The translations under genes were made by a program, and so were the position numbers. A stretch of DNA of 64,000 nt from Escherichia coli (GTDB lineage: Bacteria > Pseudomonadota > Gammaproteobacteria > Enterobacterales > Enterobacteriaceae), in assembly GCF_017348835.2 (NCBI RefSeq), contig NZ_CP071375.1; one strand, given 5' to 3'. The notes beneath the pieces are model-generated. The model worked only from the letters and a program-made list of their open reading frames with translations, did not search any database and was not told the origin of the DNA. Shown piece after piece: positions 1,775-9,996 of this stretch (position 1 is its first letter; each line of letters begins with the position of its first letter).

Positions 1775-2629
1775 TTAAATAGAGGCTGCGGGTTGCAGAC
1801 TGACTTTAATGTCAGCCGGTGCCGCGTAATAAGGCGCGGAGGTAATAAAGAGGCGAATGCCGCAGTCGAGGTAATTTTTGAGTGTCGTCAGATTAATTCC
1901 GCCGGTCAGAGCCAGCGTGCAGTGGGGAGCCAGCGACGGCGCTATTTGCGCAATTTCAGTTGCCTGTTGCGGACTAAATTTGTCGAGCTGAAGTACGTCT
2001 GGTTGCGCGCGTAACGCGGCGATTGCCTCTTTCGGCGTGTCGGCTTCAACAACAATTTTCTTCTCGGGTGCGTGGCGACGTAACTGATTGATTGCGCCTG
2101 ACCAGTCCTGATTGTCATGAAGAAAATGGCGGTGGTTGGCAAACAATAATATGGTTTCCGCACATCCGGCACGATGAATCAGTCCTCCGGCAGCCAGAAT
2201 TGCCTGCGAGGCCAGTAAGCGGGTGCCCGGAATTGCTTTTCGGGTGCAGGCGATATTGCCATCAGGATAACGTTCACGAAGTAACGCCAGCATTTGAGCG
2301 AGATAATCAGAAACACCGCAACTCCACTCCAGCACATTCTGGACTGCCTTCCATCCCTGATGAAGTGCTGCGGCATTACCCTGCGCACGGATTAGCCGTT
2401 GACCCGCGTTCGCTTGTGAACCGTCGCTGACCGCGTCCTCAATAGTTAATCCCAGCGTAGTTAACATCTTACACGCGATAGAAACGCCGCTGACGCAGCC
2501 GCCCTGACGGAGAAAAAACTCTATATAGCCATGCTGGTGTCCAATATTTAATGCTCTCGTGGTCAGGTCACCGCCCTGGATATCTTCCAGAAGTAACGCA
2601 TCGATTTGTGCCTGAGAAAGGAAAATCAT
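1775..2629 (-). CDS. ModD-like protein (quinolinate/nicotinate-nucleotide phosphoribosyltransferase paralog)
   Basis: 284 aa ORF; N-terminus MIFLSQAQIDALLLEDIQGGDLTTRAL resembles NadC/ModD family; start overlaps upstream gene stop (ATGA). Confidence 0.65.
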   Translation of the reverse strand: MIFLSQAQIDALLLEDIQGGDLTTRALNIGHQHGYIEFFLRQGGCVSGVSIACKMLTTLGLTIEDAVSDGSQANAGQRLIRAQGNAAALHQGWKAVQNVLEWSCGVSDYLAQMLALLRERYPDGNIACTRKAIPGTRLLASQAILAAGGLIHRAGCAETILLFANHRHFLHDNQDWSGAINQLRRHAPEKKIVVEADTPKEAIAALRAQPDVLQLDKFSPQQATEIAQIAPSLAPHCTLALTGGINLTTLKNYLDCGIRLFITSAPYYAAPADIKVSLQPAASI

Positions 2630-3438
2630 CGCAGTGCCTCCTGCGGTACGCTATCCCACCAGATGAGCGCCCAGTCGCGGCTGGCAGGGGCGAGGGCACG
2701 AGCATCTTGTTGTTGATACCAGCGATATAACCGCTCACGCTCATCGTCGTTAAGCGCGCCAAGACTCCAGCTGACGTTCTGCTCAAAACGTTCCCAGGTG
2801 CTGTTATCCTGTTGGCAATTTTGTCCACGGATAAAATCAACGTGGGCATAAATTCCCATCTGATACAGGACGTTGAGCGCAAAGATATAGTTGGGTAATT
2901 CGATCACTTCCCGACCAGCCGCCCGCTGAATGGCTGGAGAGACGAACGAGGTGCTGACCAGATGAGTCGTATAGACGCGAAGCCGTGCCTGATTATTCAG
3001 TTTGCTCATTGCCTGGCGCATATCAGCCACCAGAGTGGAGCGGGAAGCCACGGCAATATCGCAGCGTGGCAGGTCACTCCAGTCCTCTTCCCAGGCGCGC
3101 TGGATCCAGTGGACATTGTCTGCCTTCAGCGCGGCGGCGCGACGGGCGGCAACGTTCAGCATCCCCTGACTGTAATCAACGCCATAAATCGTCGTGAGTT
3201 TGTCAGCCAGCGCCAGCGATACGGTACCCGGTCCGCAGCCCATATCGAATAAGGTCTGAGCGCCTTGCAGGTCAATTTTAGAGATCAGTTGTTGCAGGTA
3301 GCTGTCCGTTGGCGAGGCGCAATTTTCCGCCATTTTCTCCGCCCGTTGATCCCAGTGATCGGGCGTTTTTTCTGTGCGGTGAGCCAGTTTGAGTTGCTGC
3401 AGATAAAGGTCTGCAAAATCAATATCATCAATGAGCAT
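2626..3438 (-). CDS. class I SAM-dependent methyltransferase
   Basis: 270 aa ORF with motif I LFDMGCGPGTVSLALA and downstream acidic motif YGVDYS. Confidence 0.7.
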   Translation of the reverse strand: MLIDDIDFADLYLQQLKLAHRTEKTPDHWDQRAEKMAENCASPTDSYLQQLISKIDLQGAQTLFDMGCGPGTVSLALADKLTTIYGVDYSQGMLNVAARRAAALKADNVHWIQRAWEEDWSDLPRCDIAVASRSTLVADMRQAMSKLNNQARLRVYTTHLVSTSFVSPAIQRAAGREVIELPNYIFALNVLYQMGIYAHVDFIRGQNCQQDNSTWERFEQNVSWSLGALNDDERERLYRWYQQQDARALAPASRDWALIWWDSVPQEALR

Positions 3439-3447
3439 GATTGTTCC

Positions 3448-4206
3448 TTAGCGGCTAATTGCAGAGAGGTGATGATGAATTTGGTCGGCAGAAACCCGAT
3501 ACAGGGCCGCCAGTTTGTTCGTTGTTAACTGTTCGGTCGGTAAGCCTTGTGTTACTCGTCCATCTGGCTCTACCTGGATAATGCTGTCGGCAATGGCGTT
3601 GGCATGGAGCGGATGGTGAGTCGACATTAACATTGTCATGCCGTTATTTTTGAGCTGCGCCAGCGTGTCCAGTAGTTGGATCTGATGACCGAAATCGAGG
3701 CTGGAGTCAGGCTCATCCAGTAACAACAAGCGCGGTTGCTGGACGAGTGCACGGGCGATTAAAGCCAGCTGACGTTCACCGCCGCTAAGCGTATTCCAGC
3801 GTCGTGCCGCCAGATGCAAAATACCCAGCTTTTCCAGTTGCTCCGTGGCTTTCAGGCGTTCTTGCTTACCGGGAACGGAAAAAGCGCCTATGGTGGGGGC
3901 CAGGCCCATCAACACCATATCCAGCAAACTAAAAGCAAAAATACCGTCGTGCGCCTGCGGCACCCAGGCAATAGCCTGCGCGCGCTGGCGATGGCTGAGT
4001 GTCTGCACAGGGAGGCTATCCAGTAAGACCTCGCCTTTTAATAACGGTATAACGCCAAGAATGGAGCGCATGAGTGTGGTTTTGCCGCAACCATTGGCTC
4101 CTAACAGACAACAAATTGTTCCTTGCGACAGGGTGAAGGACACGTCGCGTAGCACCGGATGGCGGGAGTAACCCAGAGACGCATGACGGACGGCAAGCAA
4201 AGTCAC
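3448..4206 (-). CDS. ABC transporter ATP-binding protein (metal-chelate type importer)
   Basis: Walker A GANGCGKTT, ABC signature LSGGERQ, Walker B LLLDEP. ORF track start at 4344 gives an N-terminal extension overlapping the permease; GTG at 4204-4206 overlaps permease stop (GTGA) and is the more likely start. Confidence 0.85.
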   Translation of the reverse strand: MTLLAVRHASLGYSRHPVLRDVSFTLSQGTICCLLGANGCGKTTLMRSILGVIPLLKGEVLLDSLPVQTLSHRQRAQAIAWVPQAHDGIFAFSLLDMVLMGLAPTIGAFSVPGKQERLKATEQLEKLGILHLAARRWNTLSGGERQLALIARALVQQPRLLLLDEPDSSLDFGHQIQLLDTLAQLKNNGMTMLMSTHHPLHANAIADSIIQVEPDGRVTQGLPTEQLTTNKLAALYRVSADQIHHHLSAISR

Positions 4207-5183
4207 TGGCGACCTCCGCGTAACAACAAAAGCAGGAAAAACGGTGCGCCAACAAAAGCGGTCAGAATGCCAAGTGGGATTTCTGTTGTTCCAATGCTGC
4301 GTGCCAGCGTATCGGTAAGCAGGAGCAGAATCGCGCCAGTACACATTGCCATGGGCAACAGCTGCTGATGGTTATGACCGGTCAACAAGCGGGCAATGTG
4401 CGGAACGACCAGGCCGACCCAACCAATTATGCCCGCTATTGCTACCGAACTGGCGGTGATTAGTGTGGCGCAGACAATCAATCCAAAGCGCAGACGCGTC
4501 ACGTTCAGTCCCAGCGAACGGGCTTCGTCGTCGGAAAGCGTGAGTAAATTCATGCGCCAGCGGAGAAAAAACAGGGGCAAGGAGCCTATGAGAATGATCG
4601 GTGCAGCATAACAGAGATCGCGTAAGGTCACGGTAGACAGTCCCCCCAGCAACCAGAAGGTAATTGACGGTAACTGGGTGTAAGGATCGGCCAGCGTTTT
4701 AATTAGCGATATCCCCGCTCCGCACAACGTTCCTAACGCAATGCCTACCAGCACCAGGGTTAAGATCGGATCGTGGCGGGTCACCCGACGCGTAATCAAC
4801 CAGACGCCCGCGACCACCATCAGCCCGCCGCAAAATGCGTACAGCTGGATGTAAACAATGGATAATCCCCACAGAATTGCCGTGCAGGCACCAAGTCCGG
4901 CACCGGCGGAGACGCCTAAAATATCCGGTGAAACTAAGGGATTACGCAATATTCCCTGATAGGTGGTTCCGGCTCCTGCCAGCGCCGCGCCCAGTAACAG
5001 CGCAGCAAGAATACGCGGCACGCGGATTTGCCAGAAGACAATTTGTTCCTGCACAGGAACATTTTCTTGACGAAGAATTAGCGCCAGCAGTTGCTGCATA
5101 TCGAGATGATAAGCCCCACTTACGGCGGCAAAAGTGATACTGATAGCTGCCAGCAGCAAAATACATCCGTTTGCGATTCTCAT
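4203..5183 (-). CDS. FecCD-family ABC permease
   Basis: 326 aa highly hydrophobic ORF with multi-TM pattern typical of FecD/BtuC permeases; start overlaps upstream gene stop. Confidence 0.8.
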   Translation of the reverse strand: MRIANGCILLLAAISITFAAVSGAYHLDMQQLLALILRQENVPVQEQIVFWQIRVPRILAALLLGAALAGAGTTYQGILRNPLVSPDILGVSAGAGLGACTAILWGLSIVYIQLYAFCGGLMVVAGVWLITRRVTRHDPILTLVLVGIALGTLCGAGISLIKTLADPYTQLPSITFWLLGGLSTVTLRDLCYAAPIILIGSLPLFFLRWRMNLLTLSDDEARSLGLNVTRLRFGLIVCATLITASSVAIAGIIGWVGLVVPHIARLLTGHNHQQLLPMAMCTGAILLLLTDTLARSIGTTEIPLGILTAFVGAPFFLLLLLRGGRQ

Positions 5184-6205
5184 TAGCTCGCCACCAATTT
5201 TTGATAGTCGGCGTCACTGAGTGAACAATGCCAGAACAGTTGGGCGTAATGCTGCATGTCACTTTTAAACTGGCGATTGATGGCGGGATCCAGCCAGGCG
5301 TGAAGTCTGCGTAATCCCAGAAGACGGTTGATTCCCGGCGGGGCATCCAGCCAGCCAAAGGGCAAGCCACTTAAAAATAAGATGCGTTGTTCCGCAACGG
5401 CTTTCACGCCCTGCCAGAGAGGATCACGACGAATAAAATCTGCAGTAACGGCCTCCTGAACCAGAATAATATCCGGCTGCCAGCGCAGGAGATTTTCCAT
5501 GGAAACCTGTGTCAGGCCGTGGCGATCGGCTATTTGCGCGACGTTGTGCAAACCTAATAATTCCGCCGCCTCGGTATGCAACGAACCCTGTAAGCCCGTT
5601 TCCAGCCCTTGAGGACCGCGCGCAGCATAAAAGCGGAGGTTAGCGGCGGGTGAGGTGGCGAATGCCTGAGCTTCACCAACGAAGCGGCTGGCGAGATTGG
5701 CTTGTTCTGCGGCGCGATGCTCTTCGCCTAACGTTTTGCCAAGCGTTGTTAACTGTTCTGCTGATTGCTCCAGTTTCCCGTTAAGCAATAACCAGGGTAT
5801 TTGTGTCTGTTCGCTAACCTGCCGTGCCTGGGAGATCCAGGTTTCATCCGTATTGCCGCAATCAACGACCAAATCGGGATGTAACGCCATAAGCCCTTCC
5901 AGCGAGAGTGTGCTGGCGCGCCCGGCGAGTCGTCCCAGCCTGGGTAACTGGCGAATGTGCTCTGACAATGGAATTAATGCCTGACGGGCAAAATCAAAAG
6001 AGGAAAAACCGACCATTTTTTCTGGCGCGACAGCCAGCAATAGCAAATCGGCGGGCGCACCTGCGCTGACGATGCGTGTAATGTTTTGGGCTTCGGGAAG
6101 CGTCAGTGAGGCCCAGAAATTGACTGATTGTGCAAAGGACGGCAGATGATGCAGGAACAATGTTGACGCAAGAATCTGTGTAAACCTCCGTCTGGTTAGT
6201 GACAT
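5183..6205 (-). CDS. periplasmic substrate-binding protein (FecB/BtuF-like), possible Tat-type signal
   Basis: 340 aa ORF; N-terminus MSLTRRRFTQILASTLFLHHLPSFAQ has RR motif followed by hydrophobic stretch and AxA-like cleavage site; first gene of minus-strand operon. Confidence 0.75.
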   Translation of the reverse strand: MSLTRRRFTQILASTLFLHHLPSFAQSVNFWASLTLPEAQNITRIVSAGAPADLLLLAVAPEKMVGFSSFDFARQALIPLSEHIRQLPRLGRLAGRASTLSLEGLMALHPDLVVDCGNTDETWISQARQVSEQTQIPWLLLNGKLEQSAEQLTTLGKTLGEEHRAAEQANLASRFVGEAQAFATSPAANLRFYAARGPQGLETGLQGSLHTEAAELLGLHNVAQIADRHGLTQVSMENLLRWQPDIILVQEAVTADFIRRDPLWQGVKAVAEQRILFLSGLPFGWLDAPPGINRLLGLRRLHAWLDPAINRQFKSDMQHYAQLFWHCSLSDADYQKLVAS

Positions 6206-6480
6206 AAGTTATATCCTGATAATTAAAACCGCTATATATTTACATATATATATCGAAAAAAATCATGTTTGATGTCAAAATTTGTCTAAAGAGACAGAAT
6301 GATTTGCTTGTTGCTTAAATAACACTTTGTTCCACAAGAAAATTGTCAGGGAGAATGGCGGAGTGGCGAAAAATATAAATAGAGGTGTAATGATTAACAA
6401 ATTGATAAAATAAAATTAAAATCTTCTCTGATAAAAGAAAATAAAGGCATAGACCGTAGAATGGGGGGCATTTCGTGGCG

Positions 6481-6523
6481 AAAAAAGAGCAATGCCAATT
6501 TTATGCACATAATGGCATTGCTC
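6481..6523 (-). terminator. rho-independent terminator downstream of treA
   Basis: Inverted repeat gagcaatgcc/ggcattgctc (6487-6496, 6514-6523) followed on minus strand by T-run (6481-6486). Confidence 0.5.
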
Positions 6524-6550
6524 GATATACAGCCTCGATATACAGCAAAG

Positions 6551-8248
6551 TTAAGGCGTAGGTTCCGCCTCTTTTTGTTTTACCGGCTGTGTTGTTGATT
6601 CACTGAGTGGACGCGTCGCCGGAACATTGTCACACGGTTGCTCTTTCGGGCAGATCAAATCCAGCATTTTCAGCGTCACGCCATTGGTCCAGCCAAAGCC
6701 ATCCTGTAATGGATATTCGCCACCGCCGCCCCCCGTTCCGGTGGTGCTGACATCATATTTTTCCACCAGCTTTTTCTCCCGGTCATAGGTGTGCTGAACA
6801 TTGGTCAGGAAGTGCCAGCTAATGTCCATCGCCACCTCTTTTTGCCCGTAGTTTTGTAATCCTTCTGTCGCGACCCACTGTAACGGTGCCCAGCCATTTG
6901 GCGCATCCCATTGTTGCCCACTTTTCACCGACGTGGTGTTCAGGCCGCCGGGTTGCAGCAGATGTGTTTTCGTCGCCGTCGCCATTTTGTTGGCGCGATC
7001 TTTCGCTGCCGCATTGACGTACAGCGGGAACAGGGCGGCAGCGGTTAACTGATTGCGCACTTTATGACTTTTCAGGTCGTAATCGGCATACCAGCCTTGT
7101 TGATCGTTCCACAGGTATTTTTCGATCCCTTTTTGACGGGCATTTGCCAGCGTTTCGTACTGGTTTGCCATCGCGTTATCTCCGGCAACTTTGCTGGCGC
7201 GGGCGAGAATTTTTTCCATTTTAAACATCAGGCTGTTCAGATCGACCGGTACGATGCTGGTGGTGCGTATGGTATTTAACTGCTGCGGATTGTCCATCCA
7301 GCGCGAGCTGAAATCCCAGCCAGACGCAGCGGCAGAGCGCAAGTCGCGGTAAATTTCAGTGGCAGGTCGATTCGGATTGCTTTTGGCGGTGGCAATATCT
7401 TCCACCCATGACTCTGGTCGTGGCGTATCGCGATCGTCCCAGTAGCGGTTGAGAAGGGTACCATCCTGAAGTTTTACAACGCGTTTTTCCTGTTGTCCGG
7501 CTTGCAGGTTTTCAACACCGTCCATCCAGTAAGCATATTCTTTTTGCATTTGCGGCAGGTATTGCTTCAATGCAGCATCGCCTTCATGCTGCGCCAGTAA
7601 CTCTACCATCATGGCAAAGAAGGGCGGCTGCGAGCGGCTTAAATAGTAACTGCGGTTGCCGTTGGGAATATGACCGTAAGTGTCTATTTCATGAGCAAAA
7701 TTGGCCACCATATCCGCGACCTTATCCCAGTGACCGCTTTCGGCAAGTCCTAACATGGTGAAGTAACTGTCCCAGTAATATACCTCGCGAAAACGTCCGC
7801 CTGGCACGACATAAGGTTCCGGCAGCGGTAACAGAGAATCCCATTTTTCGGTGTTTTCGGTAGAACGCGTTAATACCGGCCAAAGTCCGTCAATATGTTC
7901 GCGCAGTGACTGTCCCTCTGGCGGAACATATTTCTCTCCCTCTTTCGGCAGGGTGAAATTGACGTTAACGAAATGGCGCAGATCAAATCCGCTCTGGTTT
8001 TGCTGCATCCGATAATCAGCAAGGATCATCAGCGGATCGCTGTTCGGCACGGCATCGGCAAAGGTTTTTTGGTCCGGAAAAAGCTTGGCGTTTTGCACAT
8101 CATTAAACAGCGGCCCTAATAAAATATCAGGCGGCTGTGGCGTTACCGGTGTTTCTTCTGCCTGCACCGATAGCGCAGCGAAACACAAAAAGATGCAGGC
8201 TGGAATTAACGCCATTTTTTGCGGGCGAGAAGGTGCGGGGGATTTCAT
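6551..8248 (-). CDS. treA: periplasmic trehalase
   Basis: Translation [30 protein letters not shown]... matches TreA throughout; ORF track starts one Met earlier (8251). Confidence 0.95.
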
Positions 8249-8567: not shown

Positions 8568-9986
8568 TTAACCCTGACGGTTGAAACGTTGCGTTTTAAC
8601 GTCCAGCGTTAGCTTTTCTTCTGGTTGTATCGCATACAGTTTCTCACCCTGCTGGCAAATCCAGCCAATCCCCAGTTCACGGGCGATCAGGGCGCTGTGG
8701 GATACCGGACTTCCGGCGCTAAGGCAGATACCTTTTACAACCGCCGGATCCAGTTGCAGTACTGTGGAAGGATAAATGTTCTCCGCCAGTAGAATAGTTG
8801 GCGAGTTAAACTGCGGGAGTTCTTCTTTCGTTTGGGTCAGGTGGACCAGGGCGCGATGCAGAAGATCGTCCACATCAATATAGCGAGCTTGTAGATATTC
8901 ATCATCCAGTTGCTGGTATTGCTGGCTAAGTTCTTTAAGAACTTGCTGCCAGGCATATTCTGCCGTGCAATGTTCGTGCTGAAGGAGTTCGCTTGCCGCC
9001 GCCAGCAGTTCCGGATCATCTAACAGTGTATGGTGACCAGAAAAGATTGCGGCAATATCGTCAAGCCCGCTGGCTTCTGCTTTCGCTGTTAACGTCATCA
9101 GATCTAATAACGTGAAGTCAATGGCCTGGCGTAATCGTTCTTGTTCTTCTTCCACGGTCAGGGTTGATTTGGCCTGTACCGTACATAAAACCGGTTGATA
9201 ATAAAAGGCTTTACCCGAAACAGGCGGAACGGGACGCAGAGTAGGTGGAGCAACTTCCTCCGTTTCACCAAAGTTATCTTCAGCCAGCTGACGGAAAGCG
9301 ATCAGTGCCTCTTCAGCTTCTGGCCCTTTCGCAATCAGGCGCAGCGTATCGTTATAGCGAACTTGTAATAACGCAATCTGGTTAATACTCTCCGGTGTGA
9401 CGCATTTGCCGTTTTTCTCCAACAACATATCGGCATTAAATGTCGATAAGGTATAAACCAGCCGGGAGGCTGGACGTACATGCAGGCCGTTACGGTTCTT
9501 TATGACCACCGCCAGAGAACGGGCTTCTTCATCGTACGGAGGACATGTGTCAGAGATTTCAGTGTCGGAGGACGGTAAACCCAGTTGTTCACGTTTGGCT
9601 TCCAGCGCATGCATGGCGTCAAAGATAACTTTGTCGATATCCGCCCCCGAGGCCGCGCTGACCGTTGCTGCCAGTGTACCTTCGACCAACGGCGCAGCAC
9701 ACAAACGTACTTTTGCGGCGATCTCGGGAGCCAGCAATTCCAGCGCAGTTTCAGCACTCAATAATGCGCTACCCATATCCATCATGACCAGCACATGGTC
9801 GGCATCAGCAACAGATTCGATGGCCTCCATCACTTTGACGGCATCGGTACCAATGGGATTTTGTGGATCGTCAATTCCCGCGGCAATGGCGATTTTACAA
9901 CTATCACTCATTAACATCTGACGGGCTAATTCACCGACACCTTCTCCCAGTCGGCTGCTATGTGAAACTATGACCAGGTTTACCAT
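8568..9986 (-). CDS. dhaM: dihydroxyacetone kinase phosphotransferase subunit (PTS EI/HPr/EIIA-like)
   Basis: Translation MVNLVIVSHSSRLGEGVGELARQ... matches DhaM; ORF track start at 9992 adds 2 aa. Confidence 0.93.
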   Translation of the reverse strand: MVNLVIVSHSSRLGEGVGELARQMLMSDSCKIAIAAGIDDPQNPIGTDAVKVMEAIESVADADHVLVMMDMGSALLSAETALELLAPEIAAKVRLCAAPLVEGTLAATVSAASGADIDKVIFDAMHALEAKREQLGLPSSDTEISDTCPPYDEEARSLAVVIKNRNGLHVRPASRLVYTLSTFNADMLLEKNGKCVTPESINQIALLQVRYNDTLRLIAKGPEAEEALIAFRQLAEDNFGETEEVAPPTLRPVPPVSGKAFYYQPVLCTVQAKSTLTVEEEQERLRQAIDFTLLDLMTLTAKAEASGLDDIAAIFSGHHTLLDDPELLAAASELLQHEHCTAEYAWQQVLKELSQQYQQLDDEYLQARYIDVDDLLHRALVHLTQTKEELPQFNSPTILLAENIYPSTVLQLDPAVVKGICLSAGSPVSHSALIARELGIGWICQQGEKLYAIQPEEKLTLDVKTQRFNRQG

Positions 9987-9996
9987 CACCAATTCC

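Follow-up and report, generated by a model that had tools for sequence, protein, structure and literature searches.

One question raised by the treA region of Escherichia coli is how the six-gene transport operon that lies beside treA in a part of the species is regulated and what it may take up. The operon and the 345-bp spacer that separates it from treA were analyzed in a stretch of 64,000 nt of E. coli chromosome (contig NZ_CP071375.1, hereafter called the window), which is 100% identical over the query to the pig isolate PE164 (NZ_CP114128). The cluster has been named prrA-modD-yc73-fepC in the literature, and a role in iron uptake has been proposed (PMC1890555; PMC2323221). An original prediction made from the letters of the window had described the spacer as the AT-rich control region of an accessory operon, with weak Fur-like hexamer arrays and a 13-bp tandem duplication at the treA junction. 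The assignment as control region was correct, and the spacer is indeed AT-rich, with a GC content of 31.9% compared to 50.4% for the whole window. Regarding the regulator, sequence comparisons indicate that the operon quite probably encodes a ModE-repressed, TonB-dependent secondary uptake system for molybdate/tungstate, and that the core of the spacer (6206-6290) would be a sigma-70 promoter overlapped by a ModE operator.

A candidate ModE operator in front of the operon

The sequence element behind this proposal is a palindrome close to the first gene of the operon, which reads CGATATATA(TA)TGTAAATATATAGCG (minus strand 6255-6230, CGATATATATATGTAAATATATAGCG) and is absent from the original prediction. 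The consensus reported for E. coli ModE is ATCGNTATATA-N6-TATATANCGAT (PMC545781), and matches were scored in two ways, at 16 specified core positions and with an extended consensus of 20 positions. The scan with the ModE motif, which the original prediction had named among its checks, was strongly positive. All other E. coli carriers examined have a palindrome that is 2 bp shorter than in the window, CGATATATA-TGTAAA-TATATAGCG with a 6-bp spacer, and this population allele matches 16/16 core and 18/20 extended positions; the B2-type allele of the operator reads CGCTATATG-TGTAAG-TATATAGCG. In K-12 DNA, the operators of modA (CGTTATATT-GTCGCC-TACATAACG) and moaA (CGCTATATA-CATGAT-TACATAGCG) match 14/16 and 15/16 core positions, respectively. 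The candidate site is nearer to the consensus than the one of modA itself, with the difference that the strain of the window carries a variant with an 8-bp spacer. Among 5,000 simulated AT-rich 345-mers none scored above 16/20 of the extended consensus, and a core match of 15/16 was reached in 1 of 20,000 simulations. Throughout the window, the operator is the only site with at least 14/16 core positions.

The K-12 modABC operator contains the same CGnTATATA-N6-TATATAnCG inverted repeat and likewise adjoins the ribosome-binding site of the first transporter gene; it ends 19 nt before the ATG of modA, and the site described here ends 24 nt before the ATG of the binding-protein gene and 12 nt before its Shine-Dalgarno sequence. 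The recognition motif is also shared by the ModE site of moaABCDE. However, at moaA the site precedes the promoter, about 180 nt away from the start codon, and serves activation, whereas the site in the spacer abuts the ribosome-binding site, which fits repression. The regulatory gene modE is a core gene, found in 5,391/5,426 complete genomes of E. coli as counted at the species level.

Conservation of the candidate operator across genera

Altogether 21 orthologous loci from about ten genera were compared. A genome scan contributed 15 of them (Escherichia sp., E. albertii, Enterobacter sp., 11 Providencia and one mislabelled contig of a metagenome-assembled genome (MAG) that represents E. coli), and six were added by protein look-ups (Citrobacter, Salmonella, Shewanella, Serratia, Yersinia and Pantoea). 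A ModE-type box with 13-16/16 core positions and always a 6-bp spacer is present in 21/21 loci, located 26-69 nt upstream of the start of the binding-protein gene; at one locus the distance was given as -144, where the protein match starts at residue 36, corresponding to about -40 from the true ATG. Among these loci the identity of the binding protein falls to 40-50%, and the gene order is kept as binding protein, permease, ATPase, methyltransferase, (ModD) and receptor. The invariant columns in a 16-sequence alignment of the upstream regions are the two half-sites and the -35 hexamer, the remainder diverges. The CG...CG flanks and the 6-bp spacing are kept in all 21 loci, while the sequence of the spacer and the flanking sequence diverge freely.

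Second ModE-type boxes were found directly upstream of the receptor gene in Shewanella (locus L030, 10759-10782), Serratia (L031, 11491-11514) and Yersinia (L032, 9131-9154), and in these 15-kb loci only these boxes reach at least 13/16. In E. coli the gap upstream of the receptor gene measures 25 nt and holds no box. In Serratia fonticola (L031, 13556-14197) and Yersinia enterocolitica (L032, 11205-11852) a gene for a MOSC-domain (YiiM-like) protein follows the receptor gene, which is a further link to molybdenum.

Some additional features were seen in the compared loci. In Providencia (L016-L026) a divergent gene is situated about 100-300 nt upstream of the binding-protein gene; its product starts MKNKRPSLQDVAD..GITKMTVSRFLRNP and, as judged by eye, resembles a LacI-type helix-turn-helix protein. 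The block GGATAGCAATnTTTGTTnCTGATTTACATCAC is conserved in Providencia between this divergent gene and the mol-like promoter, and in two Providencia species a Fur-like site of 15/19 occurs further upstream. Finally, the contig JAIJJM010000486.1 (L012) bears the label 'MAG: Collinsella sp.'; with 97% identity to operon and spacer of E. coli, it is very likely a binning contaminant.

Gene content of the operon

The proteins encoded by the operon were compared with families and solved structures. The best solved relative of the permease is Haemophilus influenzae MolB/HI1471 (1e-64, 222 bits), followed by lower scores for FhuB (173 bits), HmuU (163 bits) and BtuC (142 bits), and the best solved type II relative of the ATPase is H. 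influenzae MolC/HI1470. ModD matches the NCBIfam model TIGR01334 at 503 bits. For the binding protein the best solved relative is 4pag (3.5e-27), whose ligand is not stated; its N-terminus MSLTRRRFTQ (residues 1-10, MSLTRRRFTQILAS..., window 6176-6205) contains a twin-arginine-like motif, which suggests export by the twin-arginine translocation (Tat) pathway. The receptor is weakly similar to siderophore and heme receptor subfamilies, far below the curated cut-offs. Collectively, the gene content resembles that of a MolBC-A-type molybdate/tungstate importer to which a TonB-dependent receptor, ModD and a methyltransferase have been joined.

The H. influenzae genes molABC are located beside modD, and their product has been called a secondary molybdenum transporter (PMC3928620). 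Expression of molB is repressed by molybdate via a factor that its authors called unknown (PMC4031551). The E. coli cluster shares with MolBC-A (HI1470-HI1472) the permease and ATPase, whose closest solved relatives these are, a class III binding protein and the linkage to modD; it differs in a binding protein that is distant from MolA and in the additional receptor and S-adenosylmethionine (SAM) methyltransferase. Compared to ModABC, which is a type I system, the transporter is of type II (FecCD/BtuC-like) and is accompanied by receptor, ModD and methyltransferase. The combination of receptor, Peripla_BP_2 protein, FecCD permease and ATPase behind an AT-rich upstream region is also known from the Fur-regulated fhu/fec/fep operons; in contrast to these, the cluster shows neither an above-chance nor a conserved Fur box, and it has a ModE box, modD and a permease that is closer to MolB. 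An identity with the iron system fit was considered and rejected: fit has the regulator FitR and is catalogued as a genomic region of its own.

Promoter signals and proposed mechanism

The position of the operator also bears on the promoter (coordinates in Table 1). No promoter fits between the operator and the binding-protein gene, and since the box abuts the ribosome-binding site, the promoter must overlap the box or lie upstream of it. A TTGAyn hexamer is aligned in all genera at the position equivalent to the perfect -35-like hexamer TTGACA of E. coli, for which the -10 candidates are poor and fall inside the left half-site of the operator. In Providencia the promoter is clear, with TTGACT, 17 nt, TAATTT and 3 nt preceding the box, hence the box covers the transcription start there. 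An alternative promoter for E. coli, consisting of TTTAGA and CATGAT, would mirror this layout and would place the transcription start on the operator's first base, at about 6255; its CATGAT is common to E. coli, Escherichia sp. and E. albertii. A further weak promoter was predicted on the minus strand deeper in the spacer (TTGTTA at 6400-6395, 17-nt spacer, TATATT at 6377-6372), where it overlaps a Fur-like 19-mer.

From the placement of the site we infer repression. When cytoplasmic molybdate (or tungstate) is sufficient, a ModE-molybdate dimer would bind the CGnTATATA-N6-TATATAnCG sequence and either occlude RNA polymerase or block its escape, which would repress the six-gene operon as at modA; under molybdenum starvation the operon would be derepressed. 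A bound ModE dimer would block initiation with either of the two promoter layouts considered for Escherichia. As for modABC, the uptake system would be expected to be off in molybdenum-replete cells.

Table 1. Sequence features of the treA/operon region (positions in the window)
Feature	Position	Strand	Remarks
TonB-dependent receptor gene	1-1749	minus	truncated by the window start
modD	1775-2629	minus	TIGR01334 match
SAM methyltransferase gene	2626-3438	minus	
ATP-binding cassette (ABC) ATPase gene	3448-4206	minus	
FecCD permease gene	4203-5183	minus	
Substrate-binding protein gene (Peripla_BP_2)	5183-6205	minus	first gene of the operon; RefSeq start, family match
Spacer treA/operon	6206-6550	minus-strand context	345 bp
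Shine-Dalgarno sequence AGGA	6214-6217	minus	8 nt before ATG at 6205-6203
Candidate ModE-type operator	6230-6255	minus	CGATATATA-TATGTAAA-TATATAGCG, core 16/16, 8-bp spacer
Alternative promoter	6262-6290	minus	inferred from sequence; TTTAGA (6290-6285), 17-nt spacer, CATGAT (6267-6262)
-35-like hexamer TTGACA	6273-6278	minus	perfect; 17 nt before the first CG of the operator
Fur-like 19-mer of the original prediction	6386-6404	minus	CAATTTGTTAATCATTACA, 12/19
Imperfect direct repeat	6486-6458 and 6373-6352	minus	TTTTTCGCCAC...CCATTCT
treA intrinsic terminator	6481-6523	minus	11-bp stem, 15-nt loop, T6 tail
Tandem duplication	6521-6546		13 bp, perfect; treA 3' untranslated region, stop codon to terminator
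Diverged treA allele	6551-6608	minus	last 19 codons; K-12 counterpart ends PTVKSATTQPSTKEAQPTP-stop
treA	6551-8248	minus	

Evidence against the assignment and alternative explanations

Several observations weigh against a ModE-controlled molybdenum system. The TTGACA hexamer has no good -10 element at a distance of 17-18 nt, so that -10 and transcription start are ambiguous in Escherichia, and the operator motif is AT-rich and palindromic and could also serve as a promoter element. In the window itself, a slip from (TA)4 to (TA)5 at 6241-6252 has widened the spacer of the operator from 6 to 8 bp, and the best two registers with a 6-bp spacer are left with 14/16 core and 15/20 extended positions. 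This allele may bind ModE poorly and repression may be weakened; the two 14/16 registers may still allow binding. Among 2,115 genomes PE164 alone is 100% identical to the window over 6206-6290, and the other matches listed are at least 2 bp shorter; the TA insertion represents either an operator mutation private to this strain or a mistake of the assembly in the TA run. On the side of the proteins, the similarity of the binding protein to MolA/HI1472, its second-best solved match, is weak (4.7e-8 over about 80 residues), and the receptor has neither an NCBIfam match above the cut-off nor a solved homologue at 1e-10. Because of this weak similarity to MolA and of a receptor that matches no family or structure, the substrate could be other than free molybdate; among class III binding proteins, similarity of fold would not tell ligands apart. 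Moreover, comparative-genomics papers up to 2026 assign the cluster to putative iron uptake or virulence, and one from 2026 describes it as 'possibly mediating iron uptake' (PMC12928451).

The iron-related labels correspond to the most obvious alternative, in which the spacer would hold a Fur-repressed promoter, the AT-rich strings at 6386-6404 and elsewhere would be degenerate Fur boxes and the operon would encode a transporter for iron or siderophores that is induced when iron is scarce. In RefSeq and in the literature, the genes are annotated as iron ABC transporter or iron uptake genes, the receptor has its weak similarity to siderophore and heme receptor subfamilies, the 12/19 site overlaps the weak predicted promoter mentioned above, and one 13/19 match overlaps the Shine-Dalgarno region. 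The strings quoted in the original prediction as Fur-like arrays are present in the DNA; however, their scores are at the chance level and they are not conserved. The best 19-bp match to the Fur consensus GATAATGATAATCATTATC in the spacer is 13/19; among 5,000 simulations of matched composition, a best score of at least 13 arises with P=0.27 and one of at least 12 with P=0.71. With a 7-1-7 model of the Fur site 10/14 positions match (P=0.53), and GATAAT-like hexamers were observed 9 times versus 8.9 expected. Fur scanning thus stayed at chance under three models, no real Fur box exists, and the earlier caution about iron regulation was justified. Across the 21 orthologous loci, from E. albertii to Shewanella, there is no conserved Fur-like site. 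The Fur-like segment is specific for E. coli, since in Escherichia sp. (L013) the sequence differs upstream of about 6380 and in E. albertii (L014) upstream of about 6290, so that both have the segment missing or replaced, and nothing comparable is kept elsewhere. The family matches of the receptor are all far under the curated cut-offs, and the permease is nearer to MolB than to any iron-complex permease. Fur control through the spacer is unsupported, and an iron-uptake promoter of this kind appears improbable.

Two further alternatives accept the palindrome and question its function. It could be a generic AT-rich promoter feature, such as a -10-like TATA, an UP element or a site for H-NS, IHF or Fis, whose resemblance to a ModE site is coincidental. 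The region has only 32% GC, TATATA resembles -10 hexamers and (TA)n runs are prone to slippage, as the private TA insertion illustrates. A coincidence is nevertheless very improbable in view of the CG flanks and the 6-bp spacing retained in 21/21 loci while the surroundings diverge, of the second boxes that precede the receptor gene in three genera and of the observed score, which was reached by no simulation. Alternatively, the inverted repeat could act as an RNA hairpin in the 5' untranslated region, i.e. as an element for translation or stability and not as a DNA operator, given that any transcribed palindrome can fold and that this one is located just upstream of the Shine-Dalgarno sequence. 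However, the two 'n' positions of the palindrome, which would be paired in a hairpin, show no covariation, with A opposite G in E. coli and C opposite A in several Providencia, and both arms are fixed in sequence without compensatory change. The lack of covariation speaks against a hairpin in the RNA and in favour of a site bound by protein in the DNA. With some choices of start site, the left arm would not even be transcribed, and an Rfam scan of 5900-6900 (E<=10) revealed no riboswitch (B12 or molybdenum cofactor), its sole matches being those of the terminator hairpin to microRNA models, by chance. Hence, a role as RNA element is hardly to be expected.

Genomic context and haplotypes

The operon arrangement occurs in about 2,143/5,426 complete E. 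coli genomes (~40%), including O157:H7, B2 extraintestinal pathogenic E. coli and avian pathogenic E. coli. The remaining genomes, including K-12 and IAI1, carry the small gene ycgY between ymgE and treA. The counterparts in O157 Sakai are ECs1693-ECs1699 (Z1961-Z1966 in EDL933, S-loop#83/OI#55), with ECs1699 as the binding-protein gene. The coding sequence of the operon has a GC content of 51-56%, and low GC is limited to the intergenic spacer. This native composition indicates that AT-richness is a property of the intergenic region and no sign of foreign DNA. The synteny dhaKLM-treA-operon-ymgE-ycgR is also found in Citrobacter, whose spacer is unrelated. The shared synteny points to an old resident locus whose place is taken by ycgY in K-12-like strains, rather than to a recent insertion, and the original comparison of the AT-rich spacer with acquired DNA is not supported for the operon.

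The two haplotypes also differ inside treA. The last 19 codons belong to a diverged allele of the same length as in K-12/IAI1 with about 58% identity, which co-segregates with the operon. In ycgY-type strains the identity to the window resumes from 6609, and the similarity ends after the treA stop codon at 6550/6551. The restriction of identity to positions from 6609 onwards indicates that the ycgY and operon haplotypes recombine inside treA, with the boundary at 6608/6609. The region shows some further strain-specific changes: dhaM of PE164 (window 8568-9992) contains an internal stop and is annotated as a pseudogene, treA is frameshifted in the O157 strain 9000 and shortened in Sakai, ycgR of Sakai is disrupted by IS629, and records typed as plasmids contain a few matches (8-12 places) to this part of the chromosome.

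The treA terminator and the 13-bp duplication

The treA end of the spacer contains the intrinsic terminator of treA. Its stem is formed by GAGCAATGCCA (6523-6513) and TGGCATTGCTC (6497-6487) of the minus strand, the T6 tail occupies 6486-6481, and the fold has -24.6 kcal/mol with z = -3.0. The exact tandem duplication announced by the original prediction was found by Tandem Repeats Finder (TRF) and by a repeat search as exactly 2.0 perfect copies of CTCGATATACAGC (6521-6533 and 6534-6546). Another match in the window, of 12/13, is located inside the permease gene, and there is no further exact copy. The overlap of the duplication with the terminator stem, which had also been pointed out, exists but amounts to 3 bp only (6521-6523).

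It had been suggested that the duplication could be a junction scar; on this view the operon would have been inserted beside treA and would have left it behind. The location is suggestive, 4 bp from position 6550 where the similarity to ycgY-type strains ends, and the repeat is absent from operon-less strains, whose sequence there is unrelated. However, the 13-bp unit is present as a single copy in 5/5 other operon-carrying lineages aligned (O157, B2-like, an environmental isolate and others). With a 64-bp probe across the duplication, the two-copy state was detected in just 29 of the 731 genomes sharing the terminator allele, against about 2,100 E. coli genomes with the operon, and in the other 702 of the 731 the match stops at the end of the first copy, as predicted for a single copy. 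The 29 genomes represent varied hosts and serotypes (e.g. enterotoxigenic E. coli O169:H41, O18ac:H14; pig, bovine, chicken and human). This diversity indicates that the duplication is older than PE164, yet it is a minority allele. A search for the 13-bp unit at the ymgE end of the operon found no copy. Furthermore, the treA-operon synteny is shared by Citrobacter, where the spacer is unrelated, and the alignment with operon-less strains places the breakpoint inside treA at 6608/6609 and not at the repeat. An insertion scar or target-site duplication was rejected on these grounds and has next to no likelihood; the simplest explanation is a neutral replication-slippage event in a minority sub-lineage.

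The duplicated unit resembles a ModE half-site (TGTATATCG versus TATATAnCG, 7/8; window 6523-6545), and the two copies together form a 13/16 pseudo-ModE site with a 5-bp spacer. Because the spacing is wrong and the arrangement is present only in the two-copy allele, this pseudo-site was judged to be due to chance.

Elsewhere in the spacer, the imperfect direct repeat TTTTTCGCCAC...CCATTCT flanks an 84-bp, very AT-rich segment that holds the Fur-like strings, and B2-type alleles have an additional 7-bp duplication at the direct-repeat segment. Small open reading frames (ORFs) of 38-45 amino acids (aa) in the spacer were rejected as genes, their frames being broken by indels among strains, and were treated as spurious. 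In Sakai the spacer carries the annotated 66-aa hypothetical ORF ECs_5716, apparently the older entry ECs1700/Z1967 (L027, 14545-14745). It is split in the window by a 5-bp indel into ORFs of 38 and 41 aa (6394-6510 and 6275-6400, minus strand) and is therefore probably no gene. Outside its last ~85 bp, the spacer consists of the treA terminator, E. coli-specific AT-rich filler and the neutral duplication.

Conclusions

A ModE-type operator kept from Escherichia to Shewanella, a MolB-like permease and the linked modD gene together argue for a re-assignment of this operon, previously connected with iron, to molybdenum/tungsten homeostasis. A ModE box before a modD-containing operon is not astonishing, and the link may already stand in regulon databases. 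A paper on regulons in Shewanella lists a ModE regulon and contains no text tying it to this operon, and literature searches for connections of ModE, ModD, TonB or molybdenum with this cluster gave nothing relevant. Going beyond regulation, the cluster might serve the ModE-controlled, TonB-dependent acquisition of molybdenum or tungsten in the form of a bulky complex, maybe metallophore- or pterin-bound, which would require an energised receptor in the outer membrane and would then be processed by ModD and the methyltransferase; this extension is tentative and we regard it as somewhat doubtful. If true, no TonB-dependent route of molybdenum uptake would, to our knowledge, have been described in Enterobacteria before, and molybdenum nutrition would be linked to fitness in the host.

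The locus also has implications for the annotation of bacterial genomes, in that the label 'iron ABC transporter' on FecCD-type systems can mislead and AT-rich Fur look-alikes call for composition-matched controls. Molybdoenzymes such as nitrate, formate and S-/N-oxide reductases drive the blooms of Enterobacteria in the inflamed gut. If the proposed function is true, a high-affinity, TonB-energised route for molybdenum could be a fitness factor in the host for those strains that carry the operon.

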